A stretch of DNA of 27,306 nt from a virus. Lineage: Duplodnaviria > Heunggongvirae > Uroviricota > Caudoviricetes. Shown here one piece after another: positions 2,528 to 26,527 of this stretch. Positions within the stretch are counted from its first letter, which is position 1. Each line of letters opens with the position of its first letter. A program made the translations under genes and the position numbers. The stretch lies in the IMG/VR virus record IMGVR_UViG_3300000301_000054. One strand, given 5' to 3'. The notes beneath the pieces are model-generated. The model saw only the letters and a list, made by a program, of their open reading frames with translations. It did not search any database and was not told the DNA's origin.

Positions 2528-2540
2528 AAACAATTTGTTT
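2528..2540 (-). promoter_or_regulatory. Palindromic leader element AAACAA-T-TTGTTT, 2 nt upstream of the SD of the 2215..2514 gene
   Basis: Perfect 13-bp palindrome; member of a family recurring at 2578, 15079, 15807 and 26517. Confidence 0.5.
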
Positions 2541-2577
2541 TCTTATGTGGCTTATTATCTCAATCAACAAAAGGTAG

Positions 2578-2592
2578 AAAACAAATTGTTTT
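2578..2592 (-). promoter_or_regulatory. Palindromic leader element AAAACAA-A-TTGTTTT; flanking AAAAGGTAGAAAACAA also present at 10175..10190
   Basis: Perfect 15-bp palindrome; 16-nt identity with the leader of the gene starting at 10111. Confidence 0.5.
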
Positions 2593-2675
2593 AGGGCTTG
2601 TGTAAATCAGGAGGGATTGTGTCTATATGAAAATGCCCAGCGTGTTGCCGGGCATTGTGAAGAATGGTTGTTTAG

Positions 2676-4709
2676 TTACTTAACTTGGTGGCCTGGTTTA
2701 GCACCAGCATCCGGGCTTAACAGGAAGATATCTTTTCCGCCAGGGCCAGCAGCCATCACCATGCCTTCAGAGATACCGAAGCGCATTTTACGCGGAGCCA
2801 GGTTAGCCACCATAATTGTGTGACGACCAATCAGTGCCTGTGGGTCTGGATAAGCAGAACGGATGCCTGAGAAGACATTACGCTTTTCACCACCGAGATC
2901 CAGTGTCAGGCGCAACAGTTTGTCAGAACCTTCAACAAACTCCGCGTTTTCAATCAGCGCCACGCGCAGGTCAACTTTGGCGAAGTCATCAAAGGTGATG
3001 GTTTCCTGAATCGGATCGTCTGCCAGCGGGCCAGTAACTGGCGCGGCAGTGGCTTTCACTTCTTCTTTAGAGGCTTCCACCAGTGCTTCAACCTGCTTCA
3101 TGTCGATGCGGTTATACAGTGCTTTGAACGGATTAACTTTGTGCGCCAGCAGCGGTTGCTGGATGCCATCCCAGGTCAGTTCCGTATTGAGGAATGCTTC
3201 TGCACGCTCGGTCAGTTTCGGCAGTACCGGTTTCAGGTACGTCATCAGTACGCGGAACAGGTTAATGCCCATTGAGCAAATCGCCTGCAGGTCGGCATCG
3301 CGACCTTCCTGTTTCGCCACCACCCACGGAGCCTGTTCATCGACATAGCGGTTAGCCAGGTCAGCCAATGCCATGATTTCACGGATAGCTTTACCAAATT
3401 CACGGCTTTCCCATGCTTCGCCAATCACTTCAGCGGCATCAGTAAAGGTTTTGTACAGTTGCGGGTCAGCCAGTTCGCTTGCCAGCACGCCGTCAAAACG
3501 CTTGTTGATAAAGCCTGCATTACGGGAGGCCAGGTTAACCACTTTGTTCACGATATCGGCATTCACGCGCTGAACGAAATCCTCCAGGTTGAGATCGATA
3601 TCATCAATGCGCGAAGAGAGTTTCGCAGTGTAGTAGTAACGCAGGCTGTCAGCGTCAAAATGATTCAGCCAGGTGCTGGCTTTAATAAAGGTGCCGCGAG
3701 ACTTGGACATCTTCGCGCCGTTCACCGTCACATAGCCGTGAACAAACAGGTTGGTCGGCTTGCGGAAGTTGCTGCCTTCCAGCATGGCAGGCCAGAACAG
3801 GCTGTGGAAGTAAACAATATCTTTACCGATGAAGTGGTACAGCTCGGCGGTGGAGTCTTTCTTCCAGTATTCATCGAAGCTGGTGGTATCGCCGCGCTTG
3901 TCGCACAGATTCTTGAAAGAACCCATGTAGCCAATCGGTGCGTCCAGCCAGACGTAGAAGTATTTGCCTGGTGCGTTCGGAATTTCAAAACCGAAGTAAG
4001 GCGCATCGCGGGAGATATCCCACTGTTGCAGGCCGGATTCAAACCACTCCTGCATTTTGTTTGCCACCTGCTCCTGCAACGCGCCGCTGCGGGTCCATGC
4101 CTGCAACATTTCGCTGAAAGAAGGCAGATCAAAGAAGAAGTGTTCGGAATCACGCATTACCGGGGTAGCGCCAGAAACCACCGATTTCGGCTCGATCAAT
4201 TCAGTCGGGCTATATGTTGCGCCGCAGACTTCACAGTTATCGCCGTATTGATCTGGCGCTTTACATTTCGGGCAGGTGCCTTTTACAAAACGATCCGGCA
4301 GGAACATGCCTTTTTCCGGGTCGTACAACTGAGAGATAGTGCGGTTTTTAATAAAACCGTTCTCTTTCAGGCGAGTATAGATAAGCTCAGACAACTGACG
4401 GTTCTCTTCGCTGTGCGTCGAGTGATAGTTGTCATAGCTGATGTTAAAGCCTGCGAAATCAGTCTGGTGTTCCTGACTCATTTCGCCAATCATCTGCTCC
4501 GGTGTGATACCAAGCTGCTGTGCTTTCAGCATGATCGGCGTACCGTGGGCATCGTCGGCACAGATGAAATTAACCTCGTGGCCGCGCATTCGCTGGTAAC
4601 GAACCCAGACATCAGCCTGGATGTGCTCCAGCATATGGCCGAGGTGGATTGAGCCGTTAGCGTACGGCAGCGCGCACGTCACCAGAATTTTCTTCGCGAC
4701 TTGGGTCAT
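2676..4709 (-). CDS. metG: Methionine--tRNA ligase (677 aa)
   Basis: Translation from [29 protein letters not shown] (class I HIGH motif), KMSKS present, C-terminal tRNA-binding domain; near-identical to enterobacterial MetG as recalled. The ORF-track start at 4838 is a 43-codon upstream extension; ATG at 4707..4709 chosen. Confidence 0.95.
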
Positions 4710-4866
4710 AGTAGGCATTACTTCTTTGTAGTGAAAAGGGGCTTGATAGTAACAAAATGGCCTTATGTCTGCCATGTGATAACAGCATTTCTCATAAATG
4801 ATTAAATGTCGTAGCTGGAGTACACTACAAGGCGACAATTGCGCAAATTAAAATAAAGGAGACGGG

Positions 4867-6126
4867 ATGAGCGAGTCCAAATCGCCGGATGCCCTGAGAG
4901 CAATGGTAGCCGGTACGCTGGCTAATTTTCAGCACCCAACCCTGAAACACAACCTGACTACGCTTAAAGCGTTACACCATGTTGCGTTGATGGATGACAC
5001 ACTGCATGTCGAACTAATCATGCCTTTCGTGTGGAATAAGCCTTTTGAAGACCTGAAAGAGCAATGTAGTGGTGATCTGCTCCGTATCACTGGCGCAAAG
5101 GCTATTGACTGGAAGCTGTCGTACAACATTGCCACGCTTAAGCGCGTCAAAAACCAACCAGGCATTAATGGCGTTAAGAACATTATCGCCGTCAGCTCAG
5201 GCAAGGGCGGCGTGGGTAAATCCTCCACAGCGGTAAACCTGGCACTGGCTTTGGCTGCTGAAGGTGCGAAAGTTGGTATTTTGGATGCCGATATCTACGG
5301 GCCATCAATTCCAACCATGCTTGGNNNNNNNNNNNNNNNNNNNNNNNNNNNNNNNNNNNNNNNNNNNNNNNNNNNNNNNNNNNNNNNNNNNNNNNNNNNN
5401 NNNNNNNNNNNNNNNNNNNNNNNNNNCAACTTCACCGGACGGTACTCACATGGCACCGATTATGTCTCATGGCCTGGCAACCAATTCAATTGGTTATCTG
5501 GTCACTGACGACAATGCGATGGTGTGGCGTGGACCGATGGCCAGCAAGGCGCTGATGCAGATGTTGCAGGAAACACTGTGGCCTGATCTGGACTATCTCG
5601 TTCTCGATATGCCGCCGGGCACTGGTGATATTCAGTTGACGNNNNNNNNNNNNNNNNNNNNNNNNNNNNNNNNNNNNNNNNNNNNNNNNNNNNNNNNNNN
5701 NNNNNNNNNNNNNNNNNNNNNNNNNNNNNNNNNNNNNNNNNNNNNNNNNNNNNNNNNNNNNNNNNNNNCATCGCGCTGATCGATGCGAAGAAAGGCATTG
5801 TGATGTTCGAAAAAGTCGAAGTGCCGGTACTAGGTATCGTCGAAAACATGAGTGTGCATATTTGCAGTAACTGCGGTCATCACGAGCCAATTTTTGGCAC
5901 CGGTGGCGCACAGAAACTGGCCGAGAAATACAACACGCAGTTGTTAGGCCAAATGCCTCTTCATATCTCTCTTCGTGAAGATCTGGATAACGGAACACCA
6001 ACCGTTATTAGTCGTCCAGATAGCGAATTTACGGCTATTTATCGTGACCTCGCAGATCGCGTTGCTGCCCAAATGTATTGGCAAGGTGAAGTAATACCTG
6101 GCGAAATCGCATTCCGCGCAGTGTGA
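4867..6126 (+). CDS. apbC: Fe-S cluster carrier ATPase ApbC/Mrp (interrupted by N runs 5325..5426 and 5642..5768)
   Basis: Three segments read [16 protein letters not shown]...[21 protein letters not shown] (deviant Walker A), [15 protein letters not shown]...[12 protein letters not shown], and ...[16 protein letters not shown]...EIAFRAV; segments fall in different frames only because of the N runs. Confidence 0.9.
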
Positions 6127-6132
6127 TAAAAA

Positions 6133-6151
6133 GGCGGTGCAATGCACCGCC
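6133..6151. terminator. Hairpin GGCGGTGC-AAT-GCACCGCC between convergent apbC and the UmuD'-like gene; U-tract on the minus-strand side
   Basis: Perfect 8-bp GC-rich stem; flanked by AAAAA on plus (TTTTT on the minus transcript). Confidence 0.6.
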
Positions 6152-6163
6152 TAATCAGTTCTC

Positions 6164-6626
6164 CTACATCACGGGACAATCATCAAACTCGCCACTTCTT
6201 GCGTCGTTGATAATGTGAGTGATCACACCAAACACGGCATTGCTGCCCGTGCATCCATCGTCATCCTTTGGCAATGCTTCCTTCTTACCGGTTCTTAAAT
6301 CCTCCAGATGCTGACGTGGGTACTTCCGGTATCTTTTTNNNNNNNNNNNNNNNNNNNNNNNNNNNNNNNNNNNNNNNNNNNNNNNNNNNNNNNNNNNNNN
6401 NNNNNNNNNNNNNGCGATATTCCCCATCCAGAGCGCATACAAGCAGAGAACCATCAACCGGGGTAAGTGAGGAATCGACCACCAGCAATGCACCCTGTAA
6501 TATTCCCTCACGATGATGACTATCAGCTGCCCTCATGAAGTAGGTCGCTGAAGGATGTCTAATTATCTGCTGATCAAGAGAAATACGGCTCTCAGCATAA
6601 TCCGCCGCAGGAGAAGGGAAGCCCAT
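6164..6626 (-). CDS. UmuD'-like S24-peptidase-domain protein, N-terminally truncated at the position of the UmuD cleavage site (interrupted by N run 6339..6413)
   Basis: Starts MGFPSPAADYAESRISLDQQIIRHPSATYF...LLVVDSSLTPVDGSLLVCALDGEY, aligning to UmuD from Gly25 onward; C-terminal segment ...AVFGVITHIINDA matches the UmuD C-terminus; SD AAGAGG upstream. Confidence 0.7.
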
Positions 6627-6641
6627 AATACTCGCCTCTTA

Positions 6642-6661
6642 ATACTGTATATACATACAGT
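6642..6661 (-). promoter_or_regulatory. LexA (SOS) box TACTGTATATACATACAGTA overlapping a sigma70-like promoter (TTCAAA-17-TATACT) for the UmuD'-like gene
   Basis: CTGT-N8-ACAG palindrome matching the LexA consensus; 16-35 nt upstream of the ATG at 6626. Confidence 0.7.
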
Positions 6662-6962
6662 ATATGTTGAAGCTATATATTTTTGAACTCTATCTCTTAA
6701 AAAAAGATGTTAATAAGATGCTAACTATTGAAAGGCATAAATATATACAATTCCAACAAACGTTATTTTTAACAAATTTTTTCTCTCTGTTGACTTTTGC
6801 GAAAGCCTTGTCTGGCCTAAATTGCGCGGAAGCTACTTTTTCCTTCCTGAGTTATCCACAGAGTTATGCACTTGCATGCATAACCTATACACACTATCTT
6901 AATTCGCAAGACACTGATGTTGCGGTATTGAAGGTTCATTGGGTTAAAAATAGACATTAAAA

Positions 6963-6990
6963 AGCCCAGTTGACTAGGCTGGGCTTTTTA
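6963..6990. terminator. Rho-independent terminator hairpin AGCCCAG...CTGGGCT flanked by A-run and T-run (bidirectional)
   Basis: 7-bp stem, about 8-nt loop, TTTTT at 6986..6990 and AAAA upstream. Confidence 0.7.
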
Positions 6991-7026
6991 AAAGGAAACA
7001 GAGTTTGCGGCTCTGTTCCTGAGCCA

Positions 7027-7215
7027 TAAGTATCTGGCGACTGAATTAAGATTAACCGAATGTACTGGATTCATCAAGAAACGTTGAGTGGTCATACCAG
7101 GTAATAATGACCATTTACTAAACATCGTTGTTCTCAAAGAAGATTTAAGTCCAGGTTTTTGGTGACTCTAAAACCTTACCTTAACTCGAAATCGTGCCGT
7201 AAGTATCTGGCGACT
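7027..7215. repeat. 16-bp perfect direct repeat TAAGTATCTGGCGACT (7027..7042 and 7200..7215); second short repeat AAATCGTGCCG (7188..7198 and 7310..7320)
   Basis: Read directly; located in the non-coding junction between the UmuD'-like gene and the phage-type gene run. Confidence 0.7.
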
Positions 7216-7289
7216 ACAGATATTGCAACTGCAAAGGCAAGCCCAAAGGTATTTGCAGCTAGGCGCGATAAAACTAAGTGAGGCCTGTT

Positions 7290-7373
7290 ATGGTTAACTT
7301 ACTGTTCAAAATCGTGCCGCCGATGTTCGCGATTATCAAAGCGATCATTGAGTACGTAAACCAGCGTCCATAA
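7290..7373 (+). CDS. Candidate 27-aa hydrophobic peptide MVNLLFKIVPPMFAIIKAIIEYVNQRP
   Basis: GTGAGG SD 6-7 nt upstream of ATG; followed by terminator hairpin 7387..7411 and a T-run; not in the ORF track because it is under 60 aa. Confidence 0.3.
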   Translation: MVNLLFKIVPPMFAIIKAIIEYVNQRP

Positions 7374-7386
7374 CGCTAGTTGCTAC

Positions 7387-7411
7387 AGGCCCCATCAAGA
7401 GCATGGGGCCT
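7387..7411 (+). terminator. Hairpin AGGCCCCAT-CAAGAGC-ATGGGGCCT followed by a T-rich tract
   Basis: Perfect 9-bp stem; T-rich downstream on plus strand. Confidence 0.55.
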
Positions 7412-7428
7412 CTTTATCGTACTATTGC

Positions 7429-8094
7429 TTATTTTTTACGGACTGAGTTGTTCACTGCTCTGGCAATCTTCTCCCGCAATTGCTGCGTTCCGTGGTACTG
7501 AACCGCAATATCTCTCAACTCGTTCACCAGTTCTCGAATCTGGTGATCTTTAAGCTCATTATTTGGGTGATTGGTAACAACTCTGGTTAATTCACCCTTG
7601 TCTTTTGCTCTTACGTATGCAGCTCTTGTGCATTCGACCCATGTATTACCGCCTACATTAACTTCGTAGATTAGGCTGGACTTATCTGTCAATTCGGAAC
7701 AAATACGGGCCGTGGTCTGGCAACTAGAGCATTCGCAGTTATCGCGGAAACCGTGGTCTACTGGCTTCGGTTTCACATCATCAACTTTTTCTACCCTATC
7801 GGAATTTAAATACTTCGAAGCCTTGCTATGCCAATCGCTGGTTTTAGGATCTTGTCCATCCATCAAACGCCAGGCTTCAGCGATTAACTCATAACTAGTG
7901 ACTGTAGCTTCCTGCGCATCACCAATAAGTCGTGTAATCTCTCTTTCAAGCCGACCGCCTAACTCCGTTTTAGTGCAATGTTCTGACCAATCGCCAGCCT
8001 CAAGAAGCGCGAGAATGCTTAAAATATCGTCCAATAGAACGGTAGTATTATCGACTTCCTTCTGAAACTCACCGGCTACTGATTTATGCATCAT
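7429..8094 (-). CDS. Hypothetical phage-type protein (221 aa), last gene of the minus-strand run
   Basis: Start overlaps the stop of the upstream gene by 4 nt; Cys cluster CECSSC. Confidence 0.55.
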   Translation of the reverse strand: MMHKSVAGEFQKEVDNTTVLLDDILSILALLEAGDWSEHCTKTELGGRLEREITRLIGDAQEATVTSYELIAEAWRLMDGQDPKTSDWHSKASKYLNSDRVEKVDDVKPKPVDHGFRDNCECSSCQTTARICSELTDKSSLIYEVNVGGNTWVECTRAAYVRAKDKGELTRVVTNHPNNELKDHQIRELVNELRDIAVQYHGTQQLREKIARAVNNSVRKK

Positions 8095-8744: not shown

Positions 8745-8929
8745 TAGGCAGCTCTCTCAACAACAAGCAATTCGTCGTAGTCATAATCAGTTTCGGAACC
8801 ATCCGTACCGAACAGAGTCACTTTGTCATTTTCCATCCAAAAAGATTTAACCGCACATTGTTGACCTTTAGATGTTATGAGCACATCACCAGGGATTACG
8901 TCTTCAGCGCGAACCTCTAGTGTTCTCAT
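8744..8929 (-). CDS. Hypothetical small phage protein (61 aa)
   Basis: Stop/start overlaps with both neighbours. Confidence 0.45.
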   Translation of the reverse strand: MRTLEVRAEDVIPGDVLITSKGQQCAVKSFWMENDKVTLFGTDGSETDYDYDELLVVERAA

Positions 8930-9486: not shown

Positions 9487-10111
9487 TGGATGACTCCTTT
9501 ACGAAGCAGTTCAGCAATACTTACGCATATCTCTGCGCCTCTAATCAGCCCCGGAACGTTCTTGTTTGGCCCAACTTCACCATCAACAAAATCAATCATC
9601 GCGTTACGAGCCATATCCACGCCCTGCGCACGTACTTCAGCCAGAAAAGCATCGGTGGCTGGAGTTTCTATGCACTGCATTTCATGCAATGTCTGCATGT
9701 CCATAAAATCCCCGTCAGGCTCTGTGATAGTGGCGTTATATGCCGAGTAAATTTTTGACGCTTCATGTGNNNNNNNNNNNNNNNNNNNNNNNNNNNNNNN
9801 NNNNNNNNNNNNNNNNNNNNNNNNNNNNNNNNNNNNNNNNNNNNNNNNNNNNNCGCAGCCTTAGATCGCAATGCCACATTCTCCGCCGCTAATGCGTCTC
9901 TCTGCGCCCGCAACTTCTCAATTTCGGCAGCCATGTAGTAACCAACCATAGCGAAGACGGCAAAAGAGTTGTCTGCCTCATCAGGCGACACTGAGGCCAT
10001 TAGCAGGCCATCGTAAAAATCGTGACTCCCATTGGTGATCGCCACCGCATAGGAGTCGTGGTTCTCGCGCTTGTGAATGAGAACTACGGGATTTTCGATT
10101 TTGTTACTCAT
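9483..10111 (-). CDS. Hypothetical phage early protein (interrupted by N run 9770..9853)
   Basis: N-terminal segment from ATG at 10111; C-terminal segment ends at 9483 overlapping the next start; coiled-coil EIEKLRAQRDALAAENVALRSKAA. Confidence 0.45.
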
Positions 10112-10248
10112 GTGTTTTTCTCTTCTTTGCTGTTACATAAGCACTACCAAGTGCTGGTTATTTTCACAAATAAGAAAAGGTAGAAAACAATTTATTTAAG
10201 GCCACAACTTATGGCCTTTATTTATTCATGCCGAAGGATTTGTAGCGT

Positions 10249-11414: not shown

Positions 11415-11475
11415 GTGTTTTTCTCTTATCGTTTAGTTACTACATTCTTACACAAATTAAGTAAGCATTTACCTA

Positions 11476-14490: not shown

Positions 14491-15060
14491 TCAATTAGAG
14501 CTTTGAAAGGCTTTGTGTGGCTGTGTTGCGAGGTTATGTCGATGGCTTAACTCACGCATCATGTCTTCAAGCCGACTCTTTGTGTCGTCGAGTTGGTCGG
14601 CCATTGCTCCCAAAAGCTGACGAACGGCCATCGGATCATCGCTGTTTAGTGATGGCATTTTATAACCCGCCTGAGAAGACATAAGATTGAACGCAGACAT
14701 CAACATCGTTAGAGAGGATTTAAGCCCAGCAATTTCACGATCTTTGCTGGCAATAATCGCCTCACTCTTGTTAGTGTCATCAGTTCGTTGAGTCTCGCTC
14801 ACCATATCCAAAGTCGCCTGCAACTTATCAGCGCGCTCTTTTTCAGCAAGATAATGAACACCGAAATGATGTGCTAAAGCTACAACCTGAGTTGGCTCTT
14901 CAAAGGTGGACTCAAAATTAAGTGCTGTAACCACTCTCTCAAATATGGAAACGTCTTCTATTCCTCGAAGAATGGCTAACATTTTGACCAGTTCATTAGC
15001 ATCCATTTCTTCGAATAAGGCGTTTTGTTCATCAGCTATCGCTTTGCATTTCTTGCACAT
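14491..15060 (-). CDS. Hypothetical protein (189 aa)
   Basis: Leader carries the palindromic element 15079..15091 and an AGGA SD. Confidence 0.5.
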   Translation of the reverse strand: MCKKCKAIADEQNALFEEMDANELVKMLAILRGIEDVSIFERVVTALNFESTFEEPTQVVALAHHFGVHYLAEKERADKLQATLDMVSETQRTDDTNKSEAIIASKDREIAGLKSSLTMLMSAFNLMSSQAGYKMPSLNSDDPMAVRQLLGAMADQLDDTKSRLEDMMRELSHRHNLATQPHKAFQSSN

Positions 15061-15078
15061 GTGTTTTTCCTAATGCTT

Positions 15079-15091
15079 AAACAAGTTGTTT
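15079..15091 (-). promoter_or_regulatory. Palindromic leader element AAACAA-G-TTGTTT, about 20 nt upstream of the ATG at 15060
   Basis: Perfect 13-bp palindrome; adjacent GTTGTTTTCTTATTGG also occurs at 1049..1064. Confidence 0.5.
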
Positions 15092-15176
15092 TCTTATTGG
15101 CTTTATTGTGATGTGGCATAAAAGGGGAGCAAGCTAAACGTAAAGGTGCAAACTCTCTATTTCGGTCAACGAAACA

Positions 15177-15196: not shown

Positions 15197-15202
15197 TCAT
15201 TA

Positions 15203-15358
15203 ACACGTTGCTTTACGGACTAGCGGATAAGCGAAGTAGATCGCCAGACCAATGAGGACGCCATCAGAAATGACAGACATCATCTTTCCCGTAAAATCCA
15301 CCAACACCGCCATCACCAGAAGAGCAATGACGATCACAAGCCGGAATCTCTCAAGCAT
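15203..15358 (-). CDS. Candidate small hydrophobic protein (about 51 aa, MLERFRLVIVIALLVMAVLV...), start overlapping the stop of the TerB-like gene
   Basis: ATG at 15356..15358 overlaps the TerB-like gene stop (15358..15360) by 1 nt; two hydrophobic stretches. Confidence 0.35.
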
Positions 15359-15783
15359 TAGAGATAAGCATCCAGTGACAACTGAAGCGCCTGGGCGATC
15401 TTTTTAAGTGCCTGCTCTTCTTGTTCACCAATGCCGTCCTGATCGGCAATATCAAGGCACAGACACAGTACATCTACTGCATCATTAGTCCCGGCCACAT
15501 CAGCCAGCTCACGTAAAGCCTGGGCATTAGCGCGGCGCGGTGAGGCTTCGTATTGAGCACGGATATTGGCGCTCATTTGGGCAATCTCACCAGCAAACGG
15601 AGAAAACGCAGGCAGAGCTGCAATTGTTTTCTCAAGAATGGAAATTTCCTTTGCGTCGCATGTGCCATCGGCATAGGAGATCATGTACGCGCCCCACACG
15701 GTGGCTTCAACCGCATCTCGGTTCTCCATTTTTTTGACCTCGATAACAGCTTTACGAGTTTTCTTTTTGAATAAACCTAACAT
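15358..15783 (-). CDS. TerB-like (tellurite-resistance TerB fold) protein
   Basis: Duplicated ADG-type motifs MISYADGTCDAKEISILE and LDIADQDGIGEQEEQALKKIAQALQL typical of TerB-like domains; palindromic element and AAGGAA SD in leader. Confidence 0.55.
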   Translation of the reverse strand: MLGLFKKKTRKAVIEVKKMENRDAVEATVWGAYMISYADGTCDAKEISILEKTIAALPAFSPFAGEIAQMSANIRAQYEASPRRANAQALRELADVAGTNDAVDVLCLCLDIADQDGIGEQEEQALKKIAQALQLSLDAYL

Positions 15784-15806
15784 GTGCTTTCCTTTTGTTA
15801 TTTGTT

Positions 15807-15821
15807 AAAACAAGTTGTTTT
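15807..15821 (-). promoter_or_regulatory. Palindromic leader element AAAACAA-G-TTGTTTT, about 24 nt upstream of the TerB-like ATG
   Basis: Perfect 15-bp palindrome. Confidence 0.5.
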
Positions 15822-18418: not shown

Positions 18419-19131
18419 TCACATTCGCAGGATCATANNNNNNNNNNNNNNNNNNNNNNNNNNNNNNNNNNNNNNNNNNNNNNNNNNNNNNNNNNNNNNN
18501 NNNNNNNNNNNNNNNNNNNNNNNNNNNNNNNNNNNNNNNNNNNNNNNNNNNNNNNNNNNNNNNNNNNNNNNNNNNNNNNNNNNNNNNNNNNNNNNNNNGA
18601 GCATACTGCCACCGGGGTTGATGTTTACTTCTACCTGACCCAAATTGACGTCAGGCTCGACAAACGCTACGCGGCCACCAGACAGAATAATCGTCTCATT
18701 CGCACACTCTGTTGCACGCTCATACCACTTTGTATCGAGGGATTGAGGAATTAGCATCACTGTTGTAACTCCGCGAGCCTNNNNNNNNNNNNNNNNNNNN
18801 NNNNNNNNNNNNNNNNNNNNNNNNNNNNNNNNNNNNNNNNNNNNNNNNNNNNNNNNNNNNNNNNNNNNNNATCAATCCAGGGGGAGATTTTGGAGTAGGG
18901 TGGATTGAGGAAGGCAATTGTACCTGGCTGTCCCCATTCAGATTTCAAAGCATCACGCTCAACGCCTATGAAATTAGGCAGCTTCGCATTGTCCTTGTTG
19001 CAGGCAACGTCAACATCAAATGTCACTCCAAGATAACGTTGAATGGCAGAAAACAGCCAGTCAGGTGTTCTCCAGAGGTCACGAAGAGAGTTGTCGCGCT
19101 TTCGCTGTTTGATTTTTTCGGCTGCAATCAT
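18419..19131 (-). CDS. Phage Dam-family N6-adenine DNA methyltransferase (interrupted by N runs 18438..18598 and 18781..18870)
   Basis: WRTPDWLF, DVACNKDNAK and NPPYS match the phage Dam (N-6-adenine methyltransferase) family as recalled. Confidence 0.6.
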
Positions 19132-19314
19132 CTTCTTTCTCGATAGGTAAGTGATTACCTATTTTTGCATTTGATTTTATGTCTGGCAATCAAATAAAAC
19201 GCGCCAGAAATGCAAACGAGAAGCTCTCTGGCGCGTTTTTGTGGTGCTGGATATGTGATTGGCTTACCCAGCACTATAAAGCTCTCTATGGGCTTTATTT
19301 TCAGTAGGGGGACG

Positions 19315-20300: not shown

Positions 20301-20460
20301 GTAAGTCTCCTTCTGCTTGGTTACATTTGCGTTTCGATAGCTACATTTTGACTAAACCTATCAGGCGGAAAAGTATTAAATACAGGCAGGAAATGATTGA
20401 AAGGCGGCTGTTCTTTAAAAGAAAGCCTGCTTTAAACTCTCTTTAAAGCAGGCTTTTGTT

Positions 20461-21018
20461 TTACACAATTTCAGAGGGTAATTTAAAAAATCCGTACTTA
20501 TTACGTGCCTTAAAGAAGCATTGCATCATTAAGTTTGTGTCATATAAGGCACTATGTGCTTTGGCATGATCGTATATAAAGCCAAGAGAGAAGGCCAACT
20601 CTTCAAGGCGGGGACGTTTACCGTCTTCTGTGGCCCACAATCCCGATAACATAGTATCTATAACAGGAACTTCTGGCAGTCTTACTCCATACCCTGAAAA
20701 CTCGTGTCGAATAAATGGTATATCAAATGCTTCGCCGTTATGAGCAACCCACACACTACATGCCCCCATATAAGCGCCAATTTCGCTGGCATGATTTGAC
20801 AACAAAGGTTCAGCTGCGAGCTGTTCCAATGAAATGCCATGAACGGCTTGAGCTTTCGGATCTATGTTTCTGCGAGGGTTAAAACGCATCTCCAGACTAT
20901 CAATATGTCTCTGTGTCTCCAGTTCATAGCGGGTAATTGCGATTTCAATAATTTTATGACCAGCAAGGAAATCCAGTCCCGTAGACTCGATATCGATGCC
21001 TGCAACAATCGTTGTCAT
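20461..21018 (-). CDS. DnaQ-like (DEDDh) 3'-5' exonuclease
   Basis: Exo I GIDIESTGL, Exo II VAHNGEAFDIPFI, Exo III HSALYDT. Confidence 0.65.
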   Translation of the reverse strand: MTTIVAGIDIESTGLDFLAGHKIIEIAITRYELETQRHIDSLEMRFNPRRNIDPKAQAVHGISLEQLAAEPLLSNHASEIGAYMGACSVWVAHNGEAFDIPFIRHEFSGYGVRLPEVPVIDTMLSGLWATEDGKRPRLEELAFSLGFIYDHAKAHSALYDTNLMMQCFFKARNKYGFFKLPSEIV

Positions 21019-21027
21019 CAGAACTCC

Positions 21028-21447
21028 TTACAACTTCTTAGCGCCCTTAAGTAGTGCGCTACGTACAAATTGAGCCGCTTTTTTCAAAGTTTCTTCACTG
21101 GTTTCACAGACAATCGGATCTTTCCACTTACCTGACACAGTGTTGAGAATATTGATTTGGTTGCTATCCAGACAAACAGAGATATAAAGCACCGTGCCAC
21201 CAGCCAGCATCAAATGCATAGGAAACAGAGGCTTTTTACTGCCTTCACTGAACTGAGACATGGCGATGTTAATGGCTTCACCCACTTGTGTACCAACAAG
21301 CCCCTGCGCAGTTTCGAATATGGCACGAATAGCCAGACGAGCCTCTCGATCGCTCATAAGCGACCGGGAATGTTCGTCCGCTACACGAATCAAAGCCTCT
21401 GTTGTTTTCCGATCCAGTTCATCTTCAAGCAACATTTCACTAAACAT
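21028..21447 (-). CDS. Hypothetical protein (139 aa)
   Basis: ORF only. Confidence 0.4.
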   Translation of the reverse strand: MFSEMLLEDELDRKTTEALIRVADEHSRSLMSDREARLAIRAIFETAQGLVGTQVGEAINIAMSQFSEGSKKPLFPMHLMLAGGTVLYISVCLDSNQINILNTVSGKWKDPIVCETSEETLKKAAQFVRSALLKGAKKL

Positions 21448-21508
21448 TTTTTATCCTTAACCCATTTTGAGAGTTTTATTGTCGCAATGTCGAAGAGGCG
21501 AACAATTT

Positions 21509-22153
21509 CTAATGAACGGTCACTCGGCCACAGAACCGGTTTTCTATCTTTTCTACAGCGTTATCTAGCATTCTCATCACTGATCTGGCTCTTGCTTCAA
21601 CCGTGCGATATCGGTTGGAAACGACGAAGGTTTGCAGATCTCCCCTTTGCGGATGCAGGTGAATTTTTGTCAGTTCCCCGCACATCAACGCATCAATACG
21701 AGCGACATACAGACGGTCTAATGATGCTCGTTGTGATCGCAAGTAATCTCGCTCTGAGAGAGCGACTCCCGGGCGTAAGCCAGCAATGGCGTTAAAGTTT
21801 GAAATAGCAGTTTTGTGGCAAAACTTTTCGATATCGAGGGCTAACTCAATACACCGATCTTCATTTGTATGGCCGACCAAATCCAACGTGTAGGCCATAA
21901 CATCAGCAGGTGTGCGATCGATAACAAAGCCTTCAACACCACGCGTAAGTAGCTCTATATGCTTTGCTATTTCCATTTGAATCTGAAGCCGCTCATATAG
22001 AGGCATAGAATCACCTACTCGAACACCGAGGCGGCTCATCAAACTTCCGACACCAGCATCCACGTAAGGGATTCCGTAATGTTTGTCGATATATTTAGCC
22101 AGGGTTGTTTTCCCACTGCCCTGAGCACCAGTGATCCCAATCCGGTAATCCAT
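21509..22153 (-). CDS. P-loop nucleotide kinase (putative deoxynucleoside monophosphate kinase)
   Basis: Walker A GITGAQGSGKTT at N-terminus; start overlaps the DHFR stop (TAATG). Confidence 0.5.
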   Translation of the reverse strand: MDYRIGITGAQGSGKTTLAKYIDKHYGIPYVDAGVGSLMSRLGVRVGDSMPLYERLQIQMEIAKHIELLTRGVEGFVIDRTPADVMAYTLDLVGHTNEDRCIELALDIEKFCHKTAISNFNAIAGLRPGVALSERDYLRSQRASLDRLYVARIDALMCGELTKIHLHPQRGDLQTFVVSNRYRTVEARARSVMRMLDNAVEKIENRFCGRVTVH

Positions 22154-22629
22154 TACGACCTTCTGTATACGATCTGCGAAAAGCCAGGCTCTTCCTCGCT
22201 GGCTCGTTGGGTATAAGCTGTTTCAACAGGCACAAAGCCTAAATTACGCATCATGCTTGCCGGGAAGAATGCATCGGCGTTTGGCACATCAACGCCGATG
22301 TGGGAGAGCCAAATCTCTTCAACATGCGGCATGAATAGCGAGTAAATTTGTTCCCCGCCAATCACCCACACAGGCTCTGGTAATCGCAACACATCATCCA
22401 CACCAGCAGGGTAGAATCCATTTGGTACAAAGCCATGAGAGCGCGTCAAAACGAGGTTATGACGCTCTGGAAGAGGGCGTTTGAGACTTTCCATCGTTTT
22501 ACGCCCCATAACGACAGTGGCGTTTTTGGTGAGTCTCTTAAATAGCTTCAGATCGGTAGAACAACGCCAGGGGAGTTCATTCGCTATGCCGATCTCATAG
22601 TTACGGCCAACAGCAGCGATCATCTTCAT
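22153..22629 (-). CDS. folA: Dihydrofolate reductase
   Basis: MKMIAAVGRNYEIG...LPW...DLKLFKRLT...VVMGRKT..S...PLP.R.N.VLTRS...VIGG.QIY aligns with E. coli FolA; GAGGTG SD. Confidence 0.8.
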   Translation of the reverse strand: MKMIAAVGRNYEIGIANELPWRCSTDLKLFKRLTKNATVVMGRKTMESLKRPLPERHNLVLTRSHGFVPNGFYPAGVDDVLRLPEPVWVIGGEQIYSLFMPHVEEIWLSHIGVDVPNADAFFPASMMRNLGFVPVETAYTQRASEEEPGFSQIVYRRS

Positions 22630-22638
22630 TTGCTCACC

Positions 22639-23118
22639 TCATAGATNNNNNNNNNNNNNNNNNNNNNNNNNNNNNNNNNNNNNNNNNNNNNNNNNNNNNN
22701 NNNNNNNNNNNNNNNNNNNNNNNNNNNNNNNTCGATGGTGAGAGTCGGCTAAAGCGGCACGGAGTCGAGGATCGTGCACCAGCGCAGCGATAAGCAGATC
22801 GCCTTTATGCTCCGCTAATGTGCGCTTAATATGCTTCTCATAACTGGTGCCATTCGGTACGAGATGAAGCCAGTCATAATCAACGCCAAAATCTTTCAGC
22901 CATCGTTTAGTTGGCGCTTCAAGAGTTTCAGAGCGGCTACTGATAAGCACCACTTCAGCCCCTGAGCGAGCAAAACCACGCAACATACGGCTGGTGGGGA
23001 AAATGAGTTCATCACCGGCAATGAGCTGGCCTGCATCCGCGTCAGATACTGATTTACGATGGCTGGCATTTGCCAGCACACCTTCAATTTCGCATAAGAC
23101 ATACATACCTCTTGCCAT
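22639..23118 (-). CDS. Putative HAD-fold hydrolase (candidate nucleotidase) with non-canonical E-x-E in place of the D-x-D motif (interrupted by N run 22647..22731)
   Basis: MYVLCEIEGVL resembles HAD motif I but with Glu for Asp; VVLISSRSE is motif-II-like; ATG 1 nt after the ThyA stop. Confidence 0.3.
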   Translation of the reverse strand: MARGMYVLCEIEGVLANASHRKSVSDADAGQLIAGDELIFPTSRMLRGFARSGAEVVLISSRSETLEAPTKRWLKDFGVDYDWLHLVPNGTSYEKHIKRTLAEHKGDLLIAALVHDPRLRAALADSHHRXXXXXXXXXXXXXXXXXXXXXXXXXXXXXL

Positions 23119-23119
23119 A

Positions 23120-24223
23120 TCACACCGCCACTGGAACCTTGATCCACGGTAGAGGGTCATAGCCAAGAATTAAAACCTCGTCCCATTTGAAATCATCCAA
23201 CTCTGACCATTCATGAGGGAAAATAACGACCGGATCTGAATGCTCTGGAGCCTGTCGTTTCATTAGCTCACACACACCTTCCATGTGGTTGTTGTACAAA
23301 TGCACGTCAAAGCCAAAATGCACAAATGCACCGGCCATGTGACCCGTAATCTTCGCGAGAAAATGAGTGAGAATGCCATAGCCAGCAATATTGAATGGCA
23401 TACCAACAAAAGTGTCTACGCTACGCTGTACGAGGCAGGAGTTGAGGATGCGTTTGGGGATTCCAAGTTCATCCAGTTCAGCTTCAGTAACACTGCCGTC
23501 CATCTCCAGATCGTATAGCATCTTGGTGTAGATAGACTCGTAACCGAGGCGACTGTGTTGAAGACCAATGTCAGTTGCCATCGTTAAACGGGTTTCAAAA
23601 TCCAGCTCACGACTCCACAAAGAGAAGACAAAGTGGCAAGGTGGCAGTTTCATATCCTCAAGCTCGCCTACGTTCCATGCGTTAAGCATGATGCGACGAT
23701 CGGTAGGGTTCGTGCGCAGTGTATCGACAATACGCTGTAGCTGATCGATTTCACGGGACAGCACTACGCGATCTTCACTGATACCCAGGTATCCCTCGAC
23801 TTTGTACCCGCGTTCACGGAAAGTAGCGATCTTGCTCAGATATTCACTATGGCTCACGATGCGGGTATCTTCCCATCGACGCCACTGCTTACCGTAAACC
23901 GGCCCCAAATCGCCATTCTCATCGGCCCATGCATCCCAAATCTTAACGCCGTTATCCTTGAGAAATTGGATGTTGCCCGTGCCTTTCAGATACCACTCAA
24001 GTTCGACAAGTAGTGGCTTAAGATTTACCGCCTTTCCAGAAATAAGCGGCACAGTCCCACCAGTAAGCATGTAGTAAGAGGGAACGTAGCAGGTGCTTAA
24101 AGTGCCAGTGCCTGTGCGATCATCAGCCTGCACGCCGCTTTTAAGCACCGTCTCAATAACTTTTGCATACGATGCGTTTGTTACCTGACCGTTCGTATGC
24201 TCTCGATTCAAAAGGAGTGACAC
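23120..24223 (-). CDS. thyA: Thymidylate synthase (ThyA family) with two insertions of about 30 and 45 aa; GTG start
   Basis: DRTGTGT, WADENGDLGPVYGKQWR, RRIMLNAWNVGEL, LPPCH (catalytic Cys), PFNIAGYGILTHF (Asn retained), GYDPLPWIKVPVAV; 367 aa. Confidence 0.8.
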   Translation of the reverse strand: MSLLLNREHTNGQVTNASYAKVIETVLKSGVQADDRTGTGTLSTCYVPSYYMLTGGTVPLISGKAVNLKPLLVELEWYLKGTGNIQFLKDNGVKIWDAWADENGDLGPVYGKQWRRWEDTRIVSHSEYLSKIATFRERGYKVEGYLGISEDRVVLSREIDQLQRIVDTLRTNPTDRRIMLNAWNVGELEDMKLPPCHFVFSLWSRELDFETRLTMATDIGLQHSRLGYESIYTKMLYDLEMDGSVTEAELDELGIPKRILNSCLVQRSVDTFVGMPFNIAGYGILTHFLAKITGHMAGAFVHFGFDVHLYNNHMEGVCELMKRQAPEHSDPVVIFPHEWSELDDFKWDEVLILGYDPLPWIKVPVAV

Positions 24224-24307
24224 AAAAACCTCACAAAGATAAGTAATTACTTATTCATCGTGTGAGTTTACATTCATTGAGAGAACAAGACCAGACAGAT
24301 AAAAAAA

Positions 24308-24327
24308 TGGTGGCCATAGGCCACCAA
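24308..24327 (-). terminator. Hairpin TGGTGGCC-ATAG-GGCCACCA with a U-run on the minus strand, between the MazG-like gene and thyA
   Basis: 8-bp stem; TTTTTTT follows on the minus-strand transcript. Confidence 0.6.
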
Positions 24328-24393
24328 AACGAATAGTCATTCCAGAGTTTTATTACGCATGTTAAATATACACAGATAGATAACTACCTACAA

Positions 24394-25263
24394 TTATTTT
24401 TTGATCATTCCGTACATTGCTGAGGCTTTAGCTTGCTCAACAAAGGAGGATAAATCGACATCACTATAGGTTGGAGACTTCAGAATCTTTCCATCGGAAA
24501 TTCGAAAACCGATCATCTTATCGGTGCCATCAGCATGGCGGAATCCCAGATCTGAAGAGTCGTATTTGCAGTTGGCCACAGCCTGGCGACGTTCCTCAAC
24601 ATCAGCAGGCCATAATTTTGTCATGTTAGACCGATGAATTTCGCCAACCAGCTCGACGACATTGATACCGAGGAAATCAGCCAGTCGATAAGTCATCATG
24701 CACGCCACATAGATTTTGTTCATTACACGGCGCAGTTCCTGAATCAGCTCAGAATCCTTAACAGTCTTCTTCTCAAGTTTATCTGCCAGCTCTTCGAGCA
24801 TACATGACGCCTCACGAGCTTCCTGAAATGGCATTGCCATATCATCGAAAACAGTGTTACCGGGCACAAAAATTGTCTGCATAAAGCGATCAATGCTCTG
24901 TTCCTGCGTGTAATAGGTCATGCCGGTAGAAATACCACCTTTGATGGAGACCATCGTACCAACACCAACGTATAAAAAGTCGGCCATTGCATCCAGCAGT
25001 TGCTCAATATCCCCATTCATTGCGGCTGGAATACCTTCCACTACAGCTTCTTCATGAATCAGGCTTGCACGGAGACGAAGCAGCTCTGGTGTCGGCATAA
25101 CGCGTCTCGGATGCTGGAAGAGTTCATGAAACTGATCGACCATCTTGTAAATACTTTCAGTGGCTACACCATGGCCTTCATGCAACTCATATGGTTCTGG
25201 CTTAAATCCAATGAGTCGATCGGTGGCAAGTTTCAGGTGGTCAGTCAGTTTGGTAAAGTTCAT
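24394..25263 (-). CDS. Putative MazG-like all-alpha nucleotide pyrophosphohydrolase with C-terminal extension
   Basis: LIHEEAVVEG (EExxE-like) followed by DIEQLLDAMADFLYV (E-x-x-D), a motif arrangement resembling MazG/HisE-type NTP-PPases; 289 aa. Confidence 0.4.
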   Translation of the reverse strand: MNFTKLTDHLKLATDRLIGFKPEPYELHEGHGVATESIYKMVDQFHELFQHPRRVMPTPELLRLRASLIHEEAVVEGIPAAMNGDIEQLLDAMADFLYVGVGTMVSIKGGISTGMTYYTQEQSIDRFMQTIFVPGNTVFDDMAMPFQEAREASCMLEELADKLEKKTVKDSELIQELRRVMNKIYVACMMTYRLADFLGINVVELVGEIHRSNMTKLWPADVEERRQAVANCKYDSSDLGFRHADGTDKMIGFRISDGKILKSPTYSDVDLSSFVEQAKASAMYGMIKK

Positions 25264-25340
25264 GCTAGTTTTGTTCCTTCTTAATTCTTGTGATCCATTG
25301 TGGCCCAGCGTTGCCAGGCCACATAATGCTTTGTATCGGT

Positions 25341-26483
25341 TTACAGGTCTGCAAACTGGCTTAGAGAAGCCTTATCCACGGTAGAATCGATCTGACCTAC
25401 CAGATATGTGCTTTGCTCTGCCTCTTGTGGTGCAATTTGCAGTGTGTCGGTTAACAACCACTTGTTCATCCAGACCAGCGGATCTGTGGTAACTTCTGGA
25501 AATAAAGCCTTCAGGCCAAGACGATTCATAGCCAGATTGGTGCGGTATTTTACATAGGTCTTCAGAATATCCGCGTTTAAACCAATCATCGAACCGTCTT
25601 TGAAGAGATAGTCTGCCCAGTTCATTTCTTGTTCGGCGACTGATTTCATGGTGTCGTAAATGACGTTTTCTTCATCAGCAGCAATCTCTTTCCACAATAA
25701 ACCTTCGCGACCGGTACGCATGAAGCGGATCATGCGTTCAGTTCCTTCGCAATGCAGAGCTTCATCACGGGCAATAAAGCGCATAATTTTGGTGTTACCC
25801 TCAAGCAACTTCCGTTCGCCAAAGGCAAACGTACATGCAAAACTTACATAGAAACGGATCGCCTCAAGCGCATTAATGGACACCAACGTGCGGAAAAGCT
25901 GACGATGCAAAGGGTATGGCTCCCAGCCATATTCATTTACGTACAGACGTTCAAACTCCTTCTCACCTAACGACTGGCGCTCGCATGTCATCCCATAAAG
26001 CCTGTCATATTCAGCAGAGATACTGATCGCTCGGTTGATGATTTCTTCATCCGTAACAATACCGTCAAAAACAATACTCGGATCGTCCACCATGCCACGA
26101 ATAATGTGGGTGTAGCTACGGCTATGGATAGTCTCAGAGAAAGACCACGTTTCAACCCACGTTTCCAGTTCAGGAATAGAGATAAGCGGCAGCAGCGTTG
26201 CATTTGGGCTACGTCCCTGAACTGAATCGAGTAACGTTTGATAACGGAGATTGCTCAGAAAAATGTGACGTTCGTGGTCCCGCAGCTTCGTGTTGAAGTC
26301 GATACGATCGCTCGAAATATCAACTTCTTCCGGCCGCCAGAAGAAAGACAATTGACGTTCAATCAACTTTTCAAAATCACGGTATTTTTGCTGATCGTAA
26401 CGTGCCACGTTGACAGATTGTCCGAGGAACATAGGCTCTTTGGTTGCATCATTAGCACCCAAACGGAACGTTGAATATGACAT
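25341..26483 (-). CDS. nrdB: Ribonucleotide reductase class Ia beta subunit
   Basis: [64 protein letters not shown]; diverged from host NrdB (roughly two thirds identity as judged by eye). Confidence 0.9.
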
Positions 26484-26516
26484 GTGTTTTTCCTTTTTCT
26501 TTTTTTGGTGCGTTTA

Positions 26517-26527
26517 AACAAGTTGTT
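26517..26527 (-). promoter_or_regulatory. Palindromic leader element AACAA-G-TTGTT upstream of nrdB; GTTTAAACAAG direct repeat at 26513 and 26538
   Basis: Same element family as 2528, 2578, 15079 and 15807. Confidence 0.45.

Follow-up and report, generated by a model that had tools for sequence, protein, structure and literature searches.

A 13-bp palindrome next to promoters of SSU5-like phage-plasmids as a probable operator of a family-wide regulon

Introduction

Short palindromes recur upstream of genes on both sides of a metG-apbC core in the viral DNA analysed here (27,306 nucleotides, referred to as the window), which raises the question of what these palindromes do and whether they act as DNA or as RNA. 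The window belongs to an SSU5-like phage-plasmid and is 98% identical to Escherichia phage Cyrano/pLF82. An initial annotation had attributed both flanks of the core to one element, and the entire window is indeed contiguous SSU5-like phage-plasmid DNA. From its sequence, metG-apbC is host-derived cargo, as its earlier description as host-type implied, with ~94% identity to the E. coli chromosomal locus. A search for previous descriptions of this motif returned none.

Recurrence of the palindrome

The unit repeated next to promoters is the 13-base palindrome AAACAA-N-TTGTTT. The window contains AAACAANTTGTTT six times at ≤1 mismatch, where 0.45 copies are expected, and four of these are perfect 13-mers, where 0.02 are expected (200 first-order Markov simulations). 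As a 15-mer with ≤2 mismatches the motif is likewise found six times (0.32 expected). Extra matches with two mismatches at 3812, 6770, 15972 and 17388 are at chance level (10 in total, 5.6 expected). The individual copies are listed in Table 1.

All five copies named in the initial annotation are present, and the sixth (10185-10197) had been noticed there only through its flanking string. Two longer shared strings also exist with small shifts in position: AAAAGGTAGAAAACAA lies at 2569 rather than 2568, with its second copy at 10175 as given, and GTTGTTTTCTTATTGG lies at 15085 rather than 15083, with its other copy correctly placed at 1049. The distance from palindrome to Shine-Dalgarno (SD) sequence, ~1-20 nt, agrees with the earlier estimate. 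At the place equivalent to the remnant at 1049-1075, the relatives L020 and L021 carry two intact copies 25 bp apart, before a CA-rich repeat region. The window has 17 N-masked runs, and comparison with Cyrano suggests that the run at 750-956 probably conceals a further copy. The palindrome does not fit the LexA (SOS) box pattern CTGT-N8-ACAG; a single SOS box is found in the window at 6645-6660, separate from the palindrome.

Table 1. Palindrome copies and associated features in the window
Feature	Position	Strand	Sequence	Context
Degenerate split remnant of a double copy, non-palindromic	1049..1075	-	GTTGTTTAtaCCAATAAGAAAACAAC	
Palindrome, downstream register	2527..2541	-	AAACAAATTGTTT (perfect 13-mer, 2528-2540)	Gene ATG at 2514; SD GGAG starts 1 nt after palindrome
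Predicted extended -10 (read from sequence)	2554..2562	-	TGaGATAAT	Serves 99-aa gene 2215-2514 (= CYRAN_101)
Palindrome, upstream register	2578..2592	-	AAAACAATTTGTTTT (perfect 15-mer; 13-mer 2579-2591)	19 nt upstream of GATAAT at 2554..2562; 51 bp centre-to-centre from copy 2527..2541
Palindrome, upstream register	10184..10198	-	AAATAAATTGTTT (1 mismatch; 13-mer 10185-10197)	Directly after GC-rich hairpin 10198-10218; TGtGAAAAT (10160-10168) 19 nt downstream; Eae-like gene, start 10111 (= CYRAN_93)
Palindrome, downstream register	15078..15092	-	AAACAACTTGTTT (perfect 13-mer, 15079-15091)	13 nt downstream of CACAAT (15105-15110); upstream of 189-aa gene 14491-15060 (= CYRAN_87)
Palindrome	15807..15821	-	AAAACAACTTGTTTT (perfect 15-mer; 13-mer 15808-15820)	Upstream of 141-aa TciA/TerB-like gene 15358-15783 (= CYRAN_85)
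Palindrome	26515..26529	-	TAACAACTTGTTT (1 mismatch; 13-mer 26516-26528; perfect 11-bp core 26517-26527)	Upstream of nrdB (25341-26483)

Distribution in the phage-plasmid family

A motif search of the genome and its relatives found the palindrome over-represented, intergenic and conserved, as expected of an operator. Motif-bearing relatives are found in E. coli, Salmonella, Klebsiella and Yersinia pestis, with 18 copies at ≤1 mismatch in Cyrano, 20 in SSU5, 13 in Klebsiella phi12.3 and 6 in Y. pestis pMT1. In Cyrano, 15 of the 18 copies are fully intergenic, in a genome of which 13.2% is intergenic (P = 3e-11), and 0.13 copies would be expected in this intergenic DNA. Even relatives with protein identities of only 48-77% have the same motif. 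The nrdB copy lies within a block that is kept in SSU5 and phi12.3, and the remaining leader diverges.

Units bearing the motif include terS, parA, the replicative helicase and cobT. These results support a cis-regulatory site common to the left-flank genes, the TciA/TerB-like gene, the 189-aa gene and nrdB, which the initial annotation had regarded as a regulon of at least five genes. The putative regulon is also far bigger than this, with ~15-20 units over the whole 108-kb element.

Symmetry and promoter register

In a frequency matrix built from 59 unique sites, conservation is 0.89-0.98 at positions -6 to -1 and 0.88-0.98 at positions +1 to +6, while the centre base is free. Both half-sites are therefore conserved symmetrically, as in an inverted-repeat operator, and such mirror-image conservation is predicted for a two-fold symmetric protein on duplex DNA.

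Relative to a -10 of the (TGn)GATAAT type, the palindrome occupies two registers, one centred near +14 of the predicted transcript and the other near -38. In 23 of 80 unique family sites a -10 hexamer (at least 5/6 positions) lies 13-14 nt upstream of the palindrome, the register of the -10 at 2554-2562, and in 10 it lies exactly 19 nt downstream, whereas every other offset accounts for 0-3 sites. The remaining 47 sites have no strong hexamer in register, and the transcription starts used here are predicted ones. The copy at 2527-2541 is 13 nt downstream of its -10 hexamer and thus spans ~+8 to +20 of the predicted transcript. Some promoters have both registers, 51 bp apart. Copies at terS, in L020 and at the Klebsiella nrdB are instead spaced by 25 bp, which is out of helical phase. 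The distance from palindrome to start codon varies (11-40 nt).

The initial annotation placed the palindrome in the 5' leader and not at -35. This holds for four of the six window copies; the copies at 2578-2592 and 10184-10198 stand ~19 nt upstream of a TGnGAWAAT -10 and are thus centred near -38, outside the leader of the accompanying promoter. In the divergent lineage L032/L136 the upstream position is the main one and the leader retains only a half-site. A simple sigma-70 scan found no -35/-10 pair at palindrome sites, and no convincing -10 hexamer was found in the canonical register for the copies at nrdB and the TciA/TerB-like gene (15807-15821). For nrdB, the promoter TTGTAA-16-TAAGAT, which would overlap the palindrome, is one uncertain option.

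A probable dyad-symmetric operator

The palindrome is most likely the binding site of one candidate phage-plasmid regulator controlling ~15-20 transcription units. In our view the site is, somewhat more likely than not, a DNA operator with dyad symmetry that serves a family-wide regulon; an element-encoded dimer would bind it and block RNA polymerase. The sites can be described as a cassette, [palindrome]-tcTGCCTTwT-N11-(TGn)GATAAT-N13-[palindrome]-Shine-Dalgarno-ATG, which would be reusable in SSU5-type phage-plasmids. Its extended -10 element would be read by host sigma-70 RNA polymerase. The 13-bp site, whether near +14, near -38 or in both places with about five helical turns between them, would overlap the polymerase footprint and be occupied by a dimeric element-encoded DNA-binding protein. 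Early, accessory, partition and late units would thereby come under one control, and the sign of this control would most likely be repression in the plasmid (lysogenic) state. In the LF82 lysogen, genes directly downstream of copies are at background (5-25, against a median of 9.8), with the exception of parA at 50 (PMC9928086 S1 table). This silence is non-discriminating because most phage genes are silent there. The fixed register could also result from common descent of a duplicated cassette instead of selection.

Candidate binding proteins

Among conserved proteins, an 88-aa protein encoded just upstream of terS is the best candidate for a binder of double-stranded DNA, as it is modelled as a MarR-like winged helix (pLDDT 82) with Foldseek matches to MepR, MarR and ZitR (probability 1.0, TM 0.70-0.76). 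It is encoded in every relative tested. Its gene is at background in the lysogen, at 7.8 (PMC9928086 S1 table), as would suit a regulator of the lytic phase more than a maintenance repressor. An alternative candidate is a conserved 92-aa protein with good expression in lysogens. The third conserved candidate is a FljA-family protein whose model has a tandem Sm/Hfq fold; if it were the binder, control would be exerted at RNA leaders. No other family-wide protein carries a repressor annotation, and the predicted ligand of this FljA-like protein is single-stranded nucleic acid rather than duplex DNA. All candidates co-occur with the motif, so phyletic patterns do not separate them. The element also encodes two ParB_N proteins in the operon ahead of terS, and their genes are silent in the LF82 lysogen (PMC9928086 S1 table), which does not favour them as the binder.

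Alternative explanations

The leader copies may instead be an RNA-level operator whose single-stranded RNA form (AAGAAAACAAnUUGUUUA) is recognised by the FljA-family protein (CYRAN_114, SSU5_121); the bound protein would mask the ribosome-binding site beside the operator and make the mRNA less stable, like Salmonella FljA on the fliC 5' UTR. We regard this as unlikely, even though CYRAN_114 is a full-length match to Pfam PF03614 (Flag1_repress, E = 1e-80), a PF03614 protein is present in all relatives tested, and FljA-like homologues are found on 831 plasmids, including pHCM2-type plasmids and pMT1. FljA has been described as preventing translation of fliC mRNA (PMC2652032), and the FljA-like gene is expressed in the lysogen, at 18 in overnight LB and log2 7-8 in other conditions (PMC9928086 S1 table). 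The gap between downstream-register copies and the start codon is 11-40 nt, often with the SD directly adjoining the copy, and the Salmonella fliC leader has the palindrome core as an 8-mer, CAAGTTGT, 8 nt before its SD. The settings are alike in that FljA acts on a short A/U-rich, dyad-containing leader stretch just upstream of the SD and the element has its own PF03614 protein. However, the element's protein is only 35-40% identical to true FljA, and FljA has one known target as against ~20 here. The fliC leader shares the 8-mer, but the weight matrix of phage sites gives it -3.7, compared with 14-28 for real sites (shuffle p = 0.14).

The architecture of the sites argues further against this RNA reading. 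Reverse-complement symmetry would be meaningless in a site bound as single-stranded RNA, and the hairpin is negligible, with no support from covariation. The register is tied to the -10 hexamer and not to the ribosome-binding site. About one quarter of copies, including two of the six in the window, lie at ~-38, outside the leader of their own promoter, and so do not stand in a 5' UTR beside the ribosome-binding site of their target; such upstream-register copies cannot act as FljA does, and in L032/L136 they are dominant, with only a half-site in the leader. The motif is constant even where the FljA-like protein is only 48-54% identical, and the FljA-like gene itself has no upstream copy. A wider form of the same proposal, in which the modelled tandem-Sm (Hfq-fold) protein would target the palindrome in leaders as RNA or as melted promoter-proximal DNA and silence ~20 units, appears equally unlikely. 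If it were true, the silencer would be a single-strand nucleic-acid binder rather than a helix-turn-helix repressor, and, in a family to which S. Typhi pHCM2 and Y. pestis pMT1 belong, the choice between plasmid and lytic states would have an Hfq-like protein as its master regulator.

The palindrome could also be a positive element, either a site for a lytic-phase activator, e.g. the winged-helix protein encoded beside terS, or a component of a promoter that is specific to the phage and used by modified host polymerase, so that middle and late units would be switched on and not repressed. This is improbable. Motif promoters are without a -35 hexamer, as in activator-dependent promoters, but a TGn extended -10 can make the -35 hexamer, and hence an activator, unnecessary. 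The -38 centre is close to class II activator positions, yet most copies are near +14, where bound proteins normally repress. A conserved TGCCTTwT box stands ~11 nt upstream of the -10 hexamer and bears a likeness to T4 MotA-dependent middle promoters. The winged-helix candidate is silent in the lysogen and is encoded immediately before the terS promoter with its two copies, whereas parA has a site and is nevertheless expressed in the lysogen.

It is more doubtful still that the palindrome lacks a function of its own and was carried along while duplication and recombination spread a promoter cassette, its recurrence reflecting descent as in the mobile promoter-stem-loop cassettes of T4-type phages. 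The flanks of the copies are indeed similar over 40-60 nt (the CCTTwT box, GATAAT and aACaCCAaCAAGA), the copies cluster in a hyperplastic region of small genes, each with a hairpin and promoter of its own, and the window contains the decayed copy at 1049-1075. However, the 13-mer is the best-conserved part of the cassette (0.88-0.98 per position, flanks 0.5-0.7) with its two halves symmetrically conserved, it is kept amid unrelated flanks (terS, parA, helicase, cobT, nrdB), and it is retained across genera and in the degenerate plasmid pMT1.

The initial annotation left the choice between an operator, which is favoured here, and an RNA hairpin; a 5'-leader hairpin that needs no dedicated protein to control mRNA stability, processing or translation is very improbable despite the self-complementary sequence and the closeness of leader copies to the SD, since a perfect 15-mer has a dG of only -0.6 kcal/mol, the hairpin is absent from the minimum-energy fold in three of four window leaders (z-scores -1.0 to +1.2 against shuffles), 33 of 36 single mismatches break the putative pair, only one of 30 double-mismatch matches is compensatory, and upstream-register copies lie outside the leader. 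A structured RNA leader element was thus rejected, with neither a fold more stable than shuffles nor compensatory changes, and there was no match in Rfam.

Comparison with known dispersed sites

As a probable operator, the motif is of the same kind as known dispersed operators of phages and plasmids. In phage P1, which also lives as a plasmid, sites of one regulator, C1, are dispersed at many promoters of a ~100-kb genome, and such dispersed sites make unlinked operons into one immunity regulon. The P1 C1 operators are 17-bp and asymmetric (ATTGCTCTAATAAATTT), whereas the SSU5 site is a 13-bp dyad. The C1 consensus had no matches in the window at ≤3 mismatches, and no c1 homologue was found among the annotations and candidate regulators examined.

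KorB/KorA of IncP plasmids (RK2) provide a second comparison. A 13-bp odd palindrome, TTTAGCSGCTAAA, occurs ~12 times on the replicon, and one class of copies is centred ~39-40 bp upstream of transcription starts; the palindrome links partition with other functions. Similarly, the SSU5 parA promoter has a site and one SSU5 register is near -38, but the sequence differs and most SSU5 copies are downstream of the predicted start.

The stoperators of L5-type mycobacteriophages, bound by the gp71 repressor, are 13-bp sites at ~25-35 places genome-wide, in short intergenic regions downstream of promoters, where they silence lytic genes in the lysogen. Unlike the symmetric SSU5 site, which also stands upstream of the -10 hexamer, stoperators are asymmetric and orientation-dependent, and the phages, hosts and proteins are unrelated. 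In hyperplastic regions of T4-type phages, many small genes are preceded by a PeSL cassette, a hairpin with a promoter through which genes are probably shuffled. Hairpin, promoter cassette and gene follow one another in the same layout in the SSU5 small-gene region. PeSL cassettes have no defining operator-like dyad, whereas the SSU5 dyad is the best-conserved part and is also found at core genes.

Distribution of the palindromic site

The whole window is placed by megablast in the SSU5-like phage-plasmids. Escherichia phage Cyrano (OV696614; plasmid pLF82 of E. coli LF82) and CMS-2020a share 98% identity with it over 82-95% of its length, and Salmonella phage SSU5 and Klebsiella phage-plasmids show approximately 77% identity in conserved genes. 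The genes of the window are oriented on the minus strand. Judged by its nucleotide match, the metG-apbC block is host-derived cargo. Because the window is wholly SSU5-like and metG-apbC matches the E. coli chromosome, the initial annotation was correct in picturing host-type genes inside one foreign element. The 3' end of metG adjoins a double palindrome promoter at 2527-2592.

All palindrome copies named in the initial annotation are present in the sequence. The window holds four perfect 13-mers vs 0.02 by chance, and six sites with at most one mismatch vs 0.45; a search with the extended 15-mer gives six matches (0.32 expected), and two-mismatch matches are no more frequent than chance. Two longer shared strings reported alongside the copies do exist, at coordinates that were off by one and two bases, and the string at 1049 is a piece of a decayed, split double copy. 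Seventeen runs in the window are masked with N (e.g. 750-956, 2046-2129, 18438-18598), and from comparison with Cyrano the run at 750-956 probably hides one further copy.

Features of the window, with positions
Feature	Position	Strand	Description
metG-apbC block	2676-5500		50% GC; ~94% identity to E. coli chromosomal locus; present on 221 E. coli plasmids
Palindrome site			AAACAAGTTGTTT
Perfect 13-mer	2528-2540, 2579-2591, 15079-15091, 15808-15820		AAACAANTTGTTT
One-mismatch palindrome copies	26516-26528, 10185-10197		
Box (t)GCCTTwT / aCCTTTT	2571-2576, 10175-10180		~11 nt upstream of -10 hexamer; in most cassette promoters
Translation-initiation string	10111-10125, 15060-15075, 15783-15797, 26483-26498	minus	(A)AGGAAAAACACATG; near-identical at several unrelated genes

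The palindrome is a real, statistically solid and family-wide feature. For comparison, Cyrano, SSU5, Klebsiella phi12.3 and Yersinia pestis pMT1 were assembled from annotated records, and 20-kb stretches of three remoter relatives were added, along with two divergent viral contigs. With up to one mismatch allowed, the palindrome occurs 18 times in Cyrano, 20 in SSU5, 13 in the 84-kb record of phi12.3 and 6 in pMT1, and the more distant relatives carry 5-7 each per 20 kb. Of the 18 Cyrano copies, 15 are fully intergenic in a genome with an intergenic share of only 13.2% (P = 3e-11), vs 0.13 expected when the intergenic DNA is shuffled. The remaining three run into annotated starts that are doubtful. 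The palindrome precedes terS, there in two copies, as well as parA, the replicative helicase, cobT, nrdB, the TciA-like gene and the 189-aa gene; in the small-gene region most genes have it. When viral contigs were scanned for AGAAAACAANTTGTTTA, 75 of the 120 matches were SSU5-related by DNA similarity and two divergent contigs, L032 and L136, at the protein level. The remaining 43 lie on low-GC contigs, and those inspected that have at least two sites have them in coding context, so these matches look like chance; the 120 matches revealed no other phage family that uses the site.

Promoter anatomy

Copies occupy two registers relative to the -10 hexamer. In the downstream register, the 13-mer starts 13 (sometimes 14) nt past the hexamer, typically GATAAT after TGn (an extended -10 element), and would span approximately +8 to +20 if transcription starts about 7 nt past the hexamer, as predicted; the Shine-Dalgarno sequence and start codon lie 11-40 nt farther on, and the consensus is CCTTwT-N11-TGnGATAAT-aACaCCAaCAAGA-AAACAAnTTGTTT-A. 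In the upstream register, the 13-mer often directly follows a GC-rich hairpin and is itself followed by tcTGCCTTwT, with a similar -10 hexamer exactly 19 nt past the site, which puts its centre near -38 of the predicted start. A hexamer matching at least 5/6 positions stands at the downstream-register offset in 23 of 80 unique sites and at the upstream-register offset in 10, vs 0-3 at other offsets. Where both registers are occupied, the copies are always 51 bp apart (in the window, 2578-2592 and 2527-2541); doubles 25 bp apart occur at terS and, in Klebsiella, at nrdB. In the window, neither the nrdB copy nor the TciA-like copy could be given a convincing -10 hexamer in register.

A scan for canonical -35/-10 promoters gave no match at any copy, and fewer promoter-like matches overall than in shuffles. 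This is expected if the cassette promoters lack a -35 hexamer; the promoter assignment is a reading, with predicted starts. Where a -35 hexamer would stand, most cassette promoters have the (t)GCCTTwT / aCCTTTT box, conserved across the family, which is reminiscent of the MotA box in middle promoters of T4. T4-like UvsW, UvsY, gp32 and Pnkp genes are also found in the SSU5-like family.

A probable operator acting on DNA

The most likely mechanism, held at slightly better than even confidence, is repression close to the promoter by way of a dyad DNA operator. Conservation of one half of the palindrome mirrors that of the other around a free centre base, as expected if a protein with two-fold symmetry sits on duplex DNA. 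Upstream-register copies fall outside the leader of the accompanying promoter, and in L032 and L136 this register predominates and the leader retains only a half-site. The position of the palindrome is coupled to the -10 hexamer and not to the ribosome-binding site. The RNA hairpin that the initial annotation offered as an alternative to an operator is rejected: a perfect 15-mer folds with only -0.6 kcal/mol, the structure of the four window leaders does not exceed that of shuffles, and three of the four leave the palindrome unused in the minimum-energy fold. Pairing would be lost in 33 of 36 single mismatches, and among 30 double-mismatch matches just 1 is compensatory. No known RNA families were found in the window. 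Together, the weak fold, the missing compensation, the mirrored halves, the copies outside leaders and the coupling to the -10 hexamer favor a DNA operator. Such a dyad near the promoter would probably repress transcription, and both register positions are classical for steric repression. In RNA-seq of the LF82 lysogen, genes directly after copies are at background (5-25 vs a median of 9.8), with parA as an exception at 50 (PMC9928086 S1 table). These values are consistent with the DNA-operator reading and do not discriminate.

The main rival would place a master repressor on the leader RNA, namely the FljA-like protein encoded by these elements, which is modelled with an Hfq fold. FljA is cited in PMC2652032 as blocking translation of fliC mRNA, and the authentic fliC leader has CAAGTTGT 8 nt ahead of its Shine-Dalgarno sequence, which is suggestive. 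However, this leader scores -3.7 on the site matrix vs 14-28 for real sites (p = 0.14), and an E. coli fliC leader and a fljB leader score no better. The palindrome is unchanged in divergent relatives with an FljA-like protein at 48-54% identity; the two do not co-vary, a comparison that carries little information. The FljA-like gene has no palindrome upstream that would point to autoregulation. This RNA-level model is therefore kept as the main rival but considered unlikely.

The palindrome could alternatively be a passenger of a mobile promoter cassette, as hairpin, promoter and small gene follow one another much as in the mobile promoter cassettes known from T4-type phages. Against this explanation, no part of the cassette is better conserved than the 13-mer, which is kept where the flanks are unrelated. 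Identity with a LexA box or, given that the window has no C1-type operator, with the P1 C1 operator was ruled out.

Candidate binding proteins

The LF82 lysogen expresses CYRAN_45, an HTH "putative repressor" of Cyrano, but SSU5 lacks it and still has 20 sites; CYRAN_45 therefore cannot be the universal binder. Three small candidate proteins are conserved in every relative tested, and in the phage collection and pMT1 all candidate genes co-occur with the palindrome, so that their distribution does not separate them. The first, of 88 aa (CYRAN_123-like), is encoded just before terS and its two palindrome copies. It is modelled as a winged helix (pLDDT 82) that matches MepR, MarR and ZitR in Foldseek (probability 1.0, TM 0.70-0.76), and on this model it is a natural candidate for a dimer on duplex DNA; its gene is silent in the lysogen at 7.8 (PMC9928086 S1 table). 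The second, CYRAN_117 (92 aa), is well expressed there at 114 (PMC9928086 S1 table) and has an N-terminus that may resemble a ribbon-helix-helix. A Pfam search of CYRAN_117 returned no match, and sequence searches of Pfam and PDB brought no useful match for either the 92-aa or the 88-aa candidate. The third, CYRAN_114, is a full-length PF03614 (FljA) protein (E = 1e-80) with counterparts on 831 plasmids in PLSDB; its lysogen value is 18, and much higher in other conditions (PMC9928086 S1 table).

Relation to known systems and significance

Dispersed operator regulons include those built on the C1 operators of phage-plasmid P1, on the 13-bp KorB operators in RK2 and on the stoperators found in mycobacteriophage L5. 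The palindrome is alike in concept, a dispersed operator regulon too, and not a member of the P1 family. None of the four 13-mers appears in any paper of the incomplete literature searched. The papers searched on SSU5 and pHCM2 regulation make no mention of the site and describe no regulation for the SSU5-like family, and the searchable papers contain no account of how these elements choose between plasmid maintenance and lytic growth. SSU5-like phage-plasmids are common, as the 831 PLSDB plasmids with the FljA-like marker protein alone show. Their known hosts include E. coli, Klebsiella, Enterobacter and Salmonella (pHCM2-type plasmids), with pMT1 of Y. pestis as a relative, and some of them carry resistance genes (PMC9600943). 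A 13-bp site at partition, replication, nucleotide-metabolism, accessory and packaging promoters offers experiments a direct point of entry: it could serve as bait for the master regulator, to delimit the regulon and to predict cargo silenced in the carrier state. It also marks a reusable promoter cassette, which may explain the shuffling of small accessory genes in these elements.

Neighboring features

Outside the window, the stretch upstream of terS (Cyrano 57-135, SSU5 56-134, pMT1 28524-28601) has two palindrome copies at a spacing of 25 bp and, between them and the start codon, a conserved GC-rich hairpin and its T-rich tail (gagcgcatggacgcgctc tgtgtgtttt). This arrangement suggests that the late operon is controlled by termination or antitermination. 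Window positions 1-1100 (minus strand; Cyrano 94.3-95.2 kb, L001:34270-35230) include about 0.9 kb in which no ORF is convincing and the sense strand is rich in CA and poor in G/T (plus-strand GC skew +0.30, AT skew -0.375). This region carries four copies of GCCATTAC(C/T)C(A/C)A(A/T)ACA spaced 90-135 bp and three tandem units of about 31 nt, and is preceded by palindrome copies, of which the relatives L020 and L021 have two intact, 25 bp apart. A non-coding RNA, a protein-titrating array and iterons are possible readings of this region. At 6645-6660, a short way upstream of CYRAN_98, lies a perfect LexA box (CTGTATATACATACAG). CYRAN_98 is a minus-strand gene for an S24 peptidase (UmuD/HumD-like) and is strongly expressed in the LF82 lysogen; ciprofloxacin induces the phage-plasmid (PMC9928086).
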